Source: a virus (taxonomy: Duplodnaviria; Heunggongvirae; Uroviricota; Caudoviricetes). From it: a stretch of DNA of 7,183 nucleotides. A program made the translations under genes and the position numbers. Below the pieces are notes generated by a model. The model searched no databases and was not told the DNA's origin. It saw nothing but the letters and a program-made list of their open reading frames with translations. The stretch lies in IMG/VR virus record IMGVR_UViG_2706794673_000003. One strand, given 5' to 3'. Of the stretch, positions 3,284-4,710 are shown in pieces. Position 1 is the first letter of the stretch. Every line of letters begins with the position of its first letter.

Positions 3284-4710
3284 TGGCACGAAACAAACAA
3301 GCCCTGCGGCGAACTGTGCAGGCCACAGCTGATGGTTATGAGAATTTTATTGCCCGCGTAGGGATGCAGACACCTAACCAGCACTCAGCATCCACCTACC
3401 GGGCTAATTTCACCAGTCGTAACCGCATGCTGGTGGAATGGTCCTATCGTTCATCCTAGATCATCGGCGAAGCAGTCGATGCTATCCCGGATGATATGAC
3501 CCGCAAAGGCATTCGCATCACTTCGGAAATTGATGCAAAAGATCGTGGCATTCTCGAATCACAACTGGATGAGTTGCAAATCTGGGATGCGCTGAATGAC
3601 GTGCTGAAATGGTCGCGCCTCTACGGCGGCGNNNNNNNNNNNNNNNNNNNNNNNNNNNNNNNNNNNNNNNNNNNNNNNNNNNNNNNNNNNNNNNNNNNNN
3701 NNNNNNNNNNNNNNNNNNNNNNNNNNNNNNNNNNNNNNNNNNNNNNNNNNNNNNNNNNNNNNNNNNNNNNNNNNNNNNNNNNNNNNNNNNNNNNNNNNNN
3801 NNNNNNNNNNNNNNNNNNNNNNNNNNNNNNNNNNNNNNNNNNNNNNNNNNNNNNNNNNNNNNNNNNNNNNNNNNNNNNNNNNNNNNNNNNNNTAGAGCGT
3901 ATCTGGGATCGTCTTACCGCGTTCGACAGCGCTACTGTCGGCGCGGCGCAGCTGGTCTACAAGGCGCATTTGCGTACCTACAGCGTGGAGAAGCTACGCG
4001 AGCTTATCGCACTTGGTGGTCCTGCGTATGAAGCGTTGCTGAAGAATATCGACCTGATTCGACAGTTCCAGAGTAATGAAGGCATGACGCTCATGGACTC
4101 GCGGGATAAGTTTGAAACCCATCAGTACAGCTTCAGTGGTCTGGATGACATCCTTTCGCAGTTTGTAGAACAGATTAGTGGCGCTGTTGGTATCCCACTG
4201 GTGCGGTTGTTCGGACAGTCCCCGAAAGGATTTTCTACCGGTGATGCAGACCTTGCCAACTATTACGATCGCATCAGTTCGTTGCAGGAGAGGCGTTTAC
4301 GTCTTCCGGTGCGGCGGATACTGGACATCATGCATCGTTCGGAACTTGGCAAGCCGCTGCCGGACGATTTCACGTTTGAGTTTAACCCGCTCTGGCAAAT
4401 GTCTGATGTCGATCGCTCAACGGTGGCGTTAAACACCACCAACGCAATCAGTACGGCGCTGGGTGATGGTCTGATGACACTGAAAGCCGCTATGACTGAT
4501 TTGCGAGAAAATTCTGACGTAACCGGCATCGGGGCATCCATTACCGACGAGGACATCGAGAATGCCGAAGATGAAGCGCCGCCCGGCATCGGCGAACCTG
4601 ATGACGAACCGCAGGAGCCGTCAGGCGGAAATCCGGTATCGAACCAGCCTACGCAGGATAGCGAGGGCGGTCGGAGACATCGTAAATGGTCGCTACGATG
4701 GTTCAAATGA
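3283..4710 (+). pseudogene. Portal protein gene, disrupted as assembled: in-frame TAG at 3457-3459 and a 261-nt N gap at 3632-3892
   Basis: ATG at 3283 overlaps the terL stop (TGATG). Frame 1 reads MARNKQALRR...NRMLVEWSYRSS, then TAG, then IIGEAVDAIPDDMTRKGIRITS..., continuing in the same frame to TGA at 4708-4710. The tail is acidic (EDEAPPGIGEPDDEPQEPSGG), and the gene sits between terL and a MuF-like gene as in SPP1-like head modules. The longest uninterrupted piece is 3496..4710. Confidence 0.6.
3632..3892. other. Assembly gap (run of 261 N) inside the portal gene
   Basis: Contiguous n characters from 3632 to 3892; the length is a multiple of 3 so the flanking portal frame is formally preserved, but the true length and content are unknown. 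Confidence 0.99.

Follow-up and report, generated by a model that had tools for sequence, protein, structure and literature searches.

A probable dual-coding overlap of 149 nucleotides between the portal and MuF-like genes of an Escherichia coli prophage

Introduction

Long co-directional terminal overlaps are held suspect in prokaryotic annotation, and out-of-frame overlaps are classic in phages, with phiX174 as the textbook case. In 338 prokaryotic genomes, Pallejà et al. recognized no real co-directional overlap longer than 60 nucleotides (nt), the longest real one being holD/rimI with 32-56 nt (PMC2478687). The muf genes are placed directly downstream of portal genes, and the MuF protein gp7 of phage SPP1 binds the portal and is present in 1-2 copies per capsid (PMC5576092). 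In this study, an overlap of 149 nt between a portal gene and a MuF-like minor head gene was analyzed in the IMG/VR virus record IMGVR_UViG_2706794673_000003 (Caudoviricetes). The whole stretch of 7,183 nt, hereafter the window, is the late-gene region of an Escherichia coli prophage, and NZ_CP065613.1 is near-identical to it (99.8-99.9% identity, 11 mismatches). The overlap is very probably genuine and selected, with the MuF start at position 4562, as judged from the comparison of related loci.

Overlap and Internal Start Codon

An earlier note on this DNA had read the portal frame to a TGA at 4708-4710 and had placed the MuF start in another frame at 4562. Both positions were confirmed on the sequence. 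The ATG lies in the +1 frame relative to the portal, i.e., (4562-3283) mod 3 = 1, and the overlap covers 4562-4710, i.e., the last 49 portal codons and the first 49 MuF codons. The translations quoted in the note were exact. The GAGGA motif ahead of the ATG was also present, but its spacer, given as 9 nt, had to be corrected to the value listed here.

4549-4553, + strand: Shine-Dalgarno (SD) sequence GAGGA of MuF, within portal codons D435-E436-D437, 8 nt ahead of the ATG
4562-4564, + strand: probable initiation codon ATG of MuF; its AT ends portal codon N/D440, and its G opens codon A441
4562-4640, + strand: 5' half of the overlap, coding for an acidic Pro/Gly-rich portal linker NAEDEAPPGIGEPDDEPQEPSGGNP and for the basic MuF N-terminus MPKMKRRPASANLMTNRRSRQAEIRY
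4601-4603, + strand: later in-frame ATG without a good SD sequence, the PGAP MuF start in the relatives L001 and L002, giving an overlap of 110 nt
4641-4710, + strand: 3' half of the overlap, coding for MuF helix 1 and the next loop TSLRRIARAVGDIVNGRYDGSN and for the portal C-terminal peptide PTQDSEGGRRHRKWSLRWFK with its stop
4708-4710, + strand: portal stop TGA, its position kept in intact relatives

Besides 4562, the in-frame MuF ATGs are 4571 and 4601.

The earlier note had pointed to the acidic portal tail and the basic MuF N-terminus as two protein-like readings. The contrast is present, but it is largely automatic from the +1 frame relation and alone is no evidence of coding; GAA GAT GAA GCG CCG, shifted by one base, becomes AAG ATG AAG CGC CG. 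Alternative-frame runs of at least 49 stop-free codons follow 4% (+2 shift) to 10% (+1 shift) of head-module gene positions. Because an open frame of 49 codons is not rare, openness was dropped as evidence, and the case rests on the comparison with relatives.

Conservation across Related Loci

About 300 related loci were compared in all. The first set comprised 19 loci obtained by scanning the genomes of bacteria and archaea, with MuF 61-100% identical to the window, in Shigella, Shimwellia, Pantoea, Rahnella, Erwinia, Rouxiella, Izhakiella, and other genera. The second set was 80 viral contigs close to the window, the third was 80 viral contigs of the Klebsiella phage ST11-OXA48phi15.1 clade (phi15.1 clade), and the fourth was 61 viral contigs centered on Burkholderia phage vB_PL1. 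The comparison also included several annotated phages.

In all genome-scan loci with both genes intact, the portal ended in ...DS....R..W.LRWFK(R) and a stop, and GAGGA and an ATG were found at the equivalent of 4562. Close loci were defined as the 103 carrying the invariant anchor TACGATGGTTC, and the ATG was present in 101 of them. In the exception L018 (Pantoea stewartii, about 2470-2600), the module homology starts inside the overlap and no portal lies upstream, so that this locus reads as a truncated remnant. The other exception, L103, has an indel; on inspection its SD sequence and ATG were nonetheless the same. A 1-nt deletion in MuF makes L019 (Apirhabdus apintestini) a frameshifted copy, i.e., a pseudogene. 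With the exceptions of L018 and L019, both frames were open in about 200 divergent loci belonging to three clades.

The portal stop of intact relatives was found at the same position or 3-12 nt downstream, so that the overlaps measure 149-161 nt. In close loci, the conserved ATG follows a GAGGA core, which is replaced by AAGGA in a few loci of the phi15.1 clade. The portal gene thus contains a conserved internal start codon and ribosome-binding site, as a dual-coding segment should. In L006, L007, and L010, a stop stands one codon ahead of the conserved ATG, i.e., the MuF frame opens there. The ATG at 4601 is a feature of the E. coli-type lineage (about 73 of the 103 close loci); of the other genera, Izhakiella (L017) alone has it.

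The portal/MuF junctions of more distant relatives were as follows.

Klebsiella phage phi15.1 clade: MuF 51% identical to the window; overlap of 149 nt in 80/80 loci, ATG and SD sequence kept; portal tail ...LRWFTGKR and stop
Edwardsiella phage ZHS: MuF 46% identical to the window; overlap of 77-83 nt; portal tail ...RQRRRALVPE and stop
L147 and L149-L162: MuF 67-70% identical to vB_PL1; overlap of 161-176 nt with the same +1 relation; portal tail R(Q/K)WLSAWRS.R.ADD and stop
vB_PL1 sublineage: MuF 44% identical to the window; ATGA junction, i.e., 4-nt overlap; portal tail ...TNDSLLRRLFRRR and stop

The portal tail of L147 and L149-L162 is positionally homologous to RKWSLRWFK and its stop at the DNA level. 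In vB_PL1, the portal tail DSLLRRLFRRR is basic-hydrophobic and is encoded upstream of the MuF start, and the MuF N-terminus is full length. The loci with the ATGA junction (vB_PL1 lineage; L105, L109-L146) and those with the 161-176-nt overlap are sister lineages. They form a natural pair with and without the overlap, useful for studying its gain or resolution.

Three-frame translation of the vB_PL1 junction revealed neither a MuF-like sequence beneath the portal tail nor a tail-like one beneath the MuF N-terminus. A duplication trace in vB_PL1 was considered as the route of overlap resolution and was rejected, as the same translation showed none. In phages with MuF at 24-26% identity, the gene abuts the portal (AAM22), overlaps it by 44 nt (ZX7), or is separated from it (Geezett), and these MuFs align from residue ~19.

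The earlier note had proposed to align both proteins to homologs. By tblastn, MuF homology started at query residue 1-2 in close relatives, and it started at residues 19-22 even at 24-51% identity. Portals ending before about 4562, or MuF homologs aligning only well downstream of 4710, had been named as signs against the overlap. Neither was seen in the clade of the window, but the portal of the sister lineage vB_PL1 stops at the MuF start. As the MuF N-terminus of vB_PL1 is still full length, this lineage gives no support to a later MuF start.

Selection Signals in Both Frames

Nucleotide diversity at codon positions 1/2/3 was calculated for 18 non-redundant loci.

Portal only:.18/.09/.51
MuF only:.20/.13/.53
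Overlap 5' half, portal frame:.32/.25/.36
Overlap 3' half (4641-4710), MuF frame:.115/.112/.355

In the 3' half, diversity tracks the MuF frame, and the portal wobble position falls to.112 vs..51 elsewhere. In the 5' half, the codon periodicity is gone, and both frames conserve the first ~10 codons. The sequence varies in the middle of the overlap, where indel lengths are divisible by three.

Synonymous variability was measured as the fraction of synonymous differences among codon pairs encoding an identical residue, and was compared by the Mann-Whitney test. In the 18 loci, the portal value was 0.163 inside the overlap vs. 0.477 outside (p = 6e-16; lowest 45-codon window elsewhere 0.43), and the MuF value was 0.297 vs. 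0.494 (p = 3e-6; lowest window elsewhere 0.418), these and the following p-values being indicative only because pairwise counts share phylogeny. In two less saturated sets, the inside/outside ratio was 0.43 for MuF and 0.35 for the portal (E. coli-type set, n = 63), and 0.33 and 0.04, respectively (phi15.1 clade, n = 61). In the control without a long overlap (vB_PL1-like, ATGA), the MuF value was 0.205 vs. 0.248, which was not significant (p =.08). In its overlap-bearing sister clade (161-176 nt), the MuF value was 0.240 inside vs. 0.349 outside (p =.002).

The drop of synonymous variability in the portal starts at the SD sequence and the ATG. Synonymous variability was therefore lowered in each frame within the overlap only, and this was repeated in two further sets. 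Because the pairwise counts are phylogenetically non-independent, weight was placed on the replication between clades, the control lineage, and the sharp boundaries. The comparison of synonymous sites, which the earlier note had also suggested, thus agrees with the alignments in favoring a true dual-coding segment with the start codon that the note had chosen.

The signal was also visible at single codons. Portal E436 is invariably GAG, the core of the SD sequence, and the flanking Asp codons are free between GAC and GAT. Portal codon 440 (N/D) is invariably AAT or GAT and never AAC or GAC; its T creates the ATG. In MuF, the codons of L30 (CTA), I33 (ATA), A34 (GCG), and Y45-D46-G47 (TAC GAT GGT) are invariant, and they preserve portal T470, S473, A474, and R485-W486-F487. 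TAC GAT GGT, CTA, and ATA are invariant across 18 taxa, down to 58% MuF identity. The variation that is permitted fits dual coding, i.e., GGT/GGC/GGG exchanges are silent in MuF and turn the portal residue into S/P/A, and CTA/TTA exchanges are silent in either frame.

Portal and MuF Proteins

The portal of the intact relative L001 is 488 amino acids long. Its membership of Phage_portal_3 was recognized by PF06381 (E = 3e-106, 355 bits vs. the gathering cut-off of 33.8, residues 55-402 of 488) and by homology to solved portals, i.e., Pam3 portal 8hds (E = 2e-37) and E217 gp19. The MuF protein was assigned to the MuF/SPP1 gp7 family by PF04233 (E = 1.5e-18, 68 bits vs. the gathering cut-off of 29.6, residues 137-243 of 260) and by the position of its gene directly downstream of the portal. 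The overlap falls outside both Pfam domains.

In alignment, the acidic PPG.GE stretch of the portal coincides with the very C-terminal ends of two solved portals, 9jlf and 9l01, in which the ~36 residues beyond it have no counterpart. About 36 of the 49 residues of the portal tail (about 73%) are P, G, E, D, S, Q, or N, and this composition alone suggests a flexible or disordered linker. The conserved C-terminus is a basic-aromatic peptide, ...RKWSLRWFK.

The MuF protein of 260 residues was modeled with AlphaFold from an alignment of 50 sequences. The best model had a predicted local distance difference test (pLDDT) score of 77.9 and a predicted template modeling (pTM) score of 0.71, and the other four were lower. 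Residues 1-15 had a pLDDT below 50, and the basic N-terminus is probably disordered. Helix 1 was modeled at residues 10-44, with a pLDDT of 83-88 over residues 21-40, and is encoded within the overlap. It is followed by an invariant YDGS turn and then by a helix at residues 49-65. Because helix 1 lies inside the overlap, a MuF start after the portal stop would lose a structured and invariant helix. No sequence homolog of MuF was found in the PDB, and a Foldseek search of the model against the PDB returned only generic helical bundles (E at least 0.076).

A separate observation was made near the other end of MuF. In residues about 205-246 (window about 5174-5299), the segment DVRxSH...NCRCY contains H212, C241, and C243, which are invariant in both alignments; this pattern suggests metal binding.

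In the window itself, portal codon 59 (3457-3459) is a TAG amber codon, while the near-identical L001 has TGG (Trp). Of the 41 loci with exactly this flanking sequence, 4 (L027, L028, L033, and L068) have the same amber, and it is therefore a true lineage variant and no read error. Because of this amber, the portal of the window copy is probably a pseudogene or defective, and the gene is probably dead in this prophage lineage. Hence, the conservation evidence speaks for the phage family and not for the current function of the window copy. A run of 261 N at 3632-3892 stands for 300 nt of the L001 portal. It is a masking artefact, 39 nt short of the real sequence, with the frame kept.

Weighing of the Evidence

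Several points weigh against a genuine, selected overlap, besides the shared phylogeny of the pairwise counts. Positions about 4590-4640 are poorly conserved in both frames, which indicates weak constraint there. The suppression at MuF codons 1-10 is partly the usual effect of an initiation region, as the non-overlapping control clade also showed 0.10 there. The conservation of the portal tail must partly be a by-product of the MuF constraint. ATGs 4571 and 4601 could also serve in E. coli-type lineages, and, given the amber, the window copy may have ceased to express the portal half of the overlap. The origin scenario, the stoichiometry, and the benefits of linkage that are proposed below are what we infer and stand apart from the measured signals.

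The first alternative is that the overlap is shorter or absent, i.e., MuF starts at ATG 4601, at ATG 4571, or after the portal stop; it had also been raised in the earlier note and is unlikely. PGAP placed the start at the 4601 equivalent in L001 and L002, and a start after the portal stop was chosen by those who deposited Salmonella phage SEN34 and Klebsiella phage ST11-OXA48phi15.1. Database annotation was counted over the best 120 protein-database clusters (P0001-P0120) by the query residue at which the called protein begins.

Residue 1 (conserved ATG): 12 clusters
Residues 4-5: 3 clusters
Residues 12-14: 49 clusters
Residues 33-37: 29 clusters
Residues 52-56, after the portal stop and without helix 1: 22 clusters
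Residue 82 or later: 5 clusters

At first sight, the 49 clusters at residues 12-14 and the 22 at residues 52-56 favor a later start. However, the ATG equivalent to 4562 is the only one common to all lineages, and the ATG at 4601 lacks an SD sequence and is, save for Izhakiella, confined to the E. coli-type lineage. The portal synonymous drop sets in at the SD sequence and ATG and not at 4601. A start after the stop would remove the invariant residues Y26, L30, I33, A34, G38, I40, and Y45-S51 together with the confidently predicted helix 1, and MuF homology reaches well upstream of the portal stop, with even the distant MuFs aligning from residue ~19. The mixed database starts seem to fit the behavior of gene callers better than biology. 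At least six different N-termini are called for the same MuF gene, and only 10% of these 120 clusters begin at the conserved ATG. The others lose from 3 to more than 100 residues, and 56 of them (start at residue 33 or later) lose the conserved helix wholly or partly. Models, alignments, and Pfam boundaries of this MuF subfamily inherit this start-call error.

It is very unlikely that the portal tail past about residue 452 is non-functional read-through after a lost stop, conserved only through the underlying MuF codons. The 3'-half periodicity does follow the MuF frame, and the solved relatives 9jlf and 9l01 terminate near residue 452 of the window portal. The portal of Edwardsiella phage ZHS stops earlier and has no LRWF, and tails differ by clade (LRWFK, WLSAWRS..ADD, and RQRRRALVPE). 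Under read-through, however, MuF synonymous sites would be free, whereas they are cut to 0.33-0.43 of the outside level, and the non-overlapping control showed no such drop. The portal stop is held within 12 nt, TAC GAT GGT, CTA, and ATA are fixed over the 18 taxa, and vB_PL1 retains a separately encoded basic-hydrophobic portal tail. The lost stop that the earlier note had offered as one option is also disfavored by all relatives, both close and at middle distance, as their portals traverse the overlap to ...LRWFK(R) and a stop.

Lowered synonymous variability alone would fit an overlapping reading frame or an RNA or DNA element equally, and the segment TACGATGGTTCAAA is invariant at the nucleotide level. 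A nucleic-acid element without a second frame, i.e., an RNA structure, an internal promoter, or a packaging signal, is nevertheless highly improbable. Neither frame is interrupted by a stop in about 200 divergent loci, indel lengths are divisible by three, and the substitutions obey codon logic, i.e., GGT/GGC/GGG synonymous in MuF and CTA/TTA in both frames. In addition, the signal is bounded by the conserved SD sequence and ATG at its start and by the portal stop at its end.

Portal-MuF fusion proteins occur in other phages and a +1 shift within 4562-4707 would give one here, MuF being in the +1 frame of the portal, but programmed frameshifting is scarcely credible, as a -1 shift would miss the MuF frame, MuF has its own conserved SD sequence and ATG, unlike the downstream frame of a lambda G/GT-type pair, and no slippery XXXYYYZ heptamer or homopolymer was found in 4500-4710 except AAAA at 4508 and GGGG at 4531, both outside the overlap. 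Apparent portal-MuF fusion reading frames of 790 codons were met in L114, L144, and L146 and were set aside as ordinary ATGA junctions in which the MuF frame is merely open upstream in high-GC DNA.

Origin and Consequences of the Overlap

With these alternatives weighed, the overlap appears to be an old, co-directional dual-coding segment of a temperate-phage head module, with the portal in frame 0 and MuF in frame +1. MuF would be initiated from the internal SD sequence at 4549-4553 and the ATG at 4562, which are written in portal codons 435-441. Because the portal stop lies 149 nt downstream, this initiation would be independent and not by stop-start coupling, i.e., termination-reinitiation. 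Both products would be under purifying selection, each gene suppressing the synonymous sites of the other.

Reciprocal extension is the most likely origin of the overlap. In its 3' half, the portal frame would have run into older MuF helix-1 codons; the MuF reading looks older there because it is homologous down to 24% identity, while LRWF-type portal tails are limited to certain clades. In the 5' half, MuF would have gained an upstream start within an older acidic portal linker; the portal reading looks older there, being alignable to solved portals, whereas only certain clades have the basic MuF extension. vB_PL1 has both the portal-tail and the full MuF N-terminal segments without the overlap, which blurs this polarity of older and younger frames.

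The overlap is common to the Enterobacterales, Klebsiella-phage, and Burkholderia-phage-related clades. Its occurrence on both sides of the vB_PL1 lineage suggests an ancestral overlap in the group whose MuF identity is 44% or more, followed by a single resolution. The overlap would then have been undone secondarily in the vB_PL1 lineage.

Ribosomes translating the portal traverse the MuF ribosome-binding site, which could keep MuF output low relative to the portal. The portal and MuF, which would interact physically, may also form a single recombination unit that recombination could not separate. From this, a function of the overlap can tentatively be proposed, although it remains rather doubtful. 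The basic-aromatic peptide of the portal might have been made by overprinting MuF helix 1 and might serve, e.g., in a contact with MuF, DNA, or terminase at the portal crown. The MuF ribosome-binding site in the portal codons might set a low MuF:portal ratio, and the partners might be locked together against recombination. If true, a tailed phage would carry a co-directional overlap of ~150 nt that has functional meaning and is kept across Gamma- and Betaproteobacterial hosts. The analysis also points out the conserved portal C-terminal peptide (...LRWFK) and a portal and MuF partner in fixed genetic coupling.

Genomic Context of the Window

The genes of the window were assigned as follows.

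58-369, + strand: Rz (PF03245)
119-325, + strand: Rz1 lipoprotein reading frame, nested out of frame within Rz (PF06085, E = 4e-21)
458-970, - strand: DedA-family/VTT-domain membrane protein gene, between the lysis and terminase genes
1165-1929, + strand: putative small terminase subunit, by position alone and without a Pfam match; "hypothetical protein" in L001
about 1880-3283, + strand: large terminase subunit
3283-4710, + strand: portal, Phage_portal_3 (formerly DUF1073), PF06381; also the PGAP annotation in L001
4562-5344, + strand: MuF-like minor head (head morphogenesis) gene, 260 amino acids, PF04233
5348-6568, + strand: DUF2213 gene
6572-7078, + strand: Gp24-type cement protein

In L001, a single "lysis protein" was the sole PGAP annotation over the Rz/Rz1 stretch. 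The DedA/VTT gene looks like a cargo ("moron") gene. A further, fairly long candidate co-directional overlap of 50 nt (1880-1929) was noticed between the gene at the small-terminase position and the PGAP start of the large terminase subunit.

Comparison with Known Systems

No description of the portal/MuF overlap was found in the searchable literature, including the SEN34 paper and the overlapping-gene review, and the latter mentions no tailed-phage portal case (PMC8227390). The overlap is of a known kind, i.e., phage gene overlap or overprinting; this example is new and brings no new principle. The portal/MuF pair of this prophage is a well-supported counter-example to the 60-nt limit (PMC2478687), with a built-in natural control. 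The sister lineages with and without the overlap suit tests of selection models on dual-coding DNA.

Like the SPP1 gp6/gp7-type portal/MuF pairs, MuF follows directly after the portal, and the pair is recognized by PF06381 and PF04233. The long overlap is clade-specific, unlike the arrangement in distant portal/MuF pairs, which abut (AAM22 and vB_PL1, 1-4 nt), overlap by 44 nt (ZX7), or are separated (Geezett).

The overlap resembles the overprinted genes of phiX174/G4 and of small eukaryotic viruses in its two-frame selection, its low-complexity or disordered segments, and, tentatively, its older and younger frames (PMC8227390). However, those genomes are tiny and under strong size constraint, whereas the present overlap is in a tailed temperate phage of ~40 kb. 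Its origin also looks like a reciprocal terminal extension and not like a new gene inside an old one.

The holD/rimI pair of Enterobacteria is likewise a conserved co-directional terminal overlap in which both protein ends are backed by ortholog alignment (PMC2478687). It covers 32-56 nt, whereas the portal/MuF overlap covers 149-176 nt and sits in prophage DNA. The lambda-type Rz/Rz1 spanin genes are also co-directional, use two frames, and have an internal start of the second gene, and their products are functional and interact. Rz1, a lysis gene, is fully embedded, whereas the portal and MuF genes belong to the head module and overlap at their termini only, by 49 codons each.

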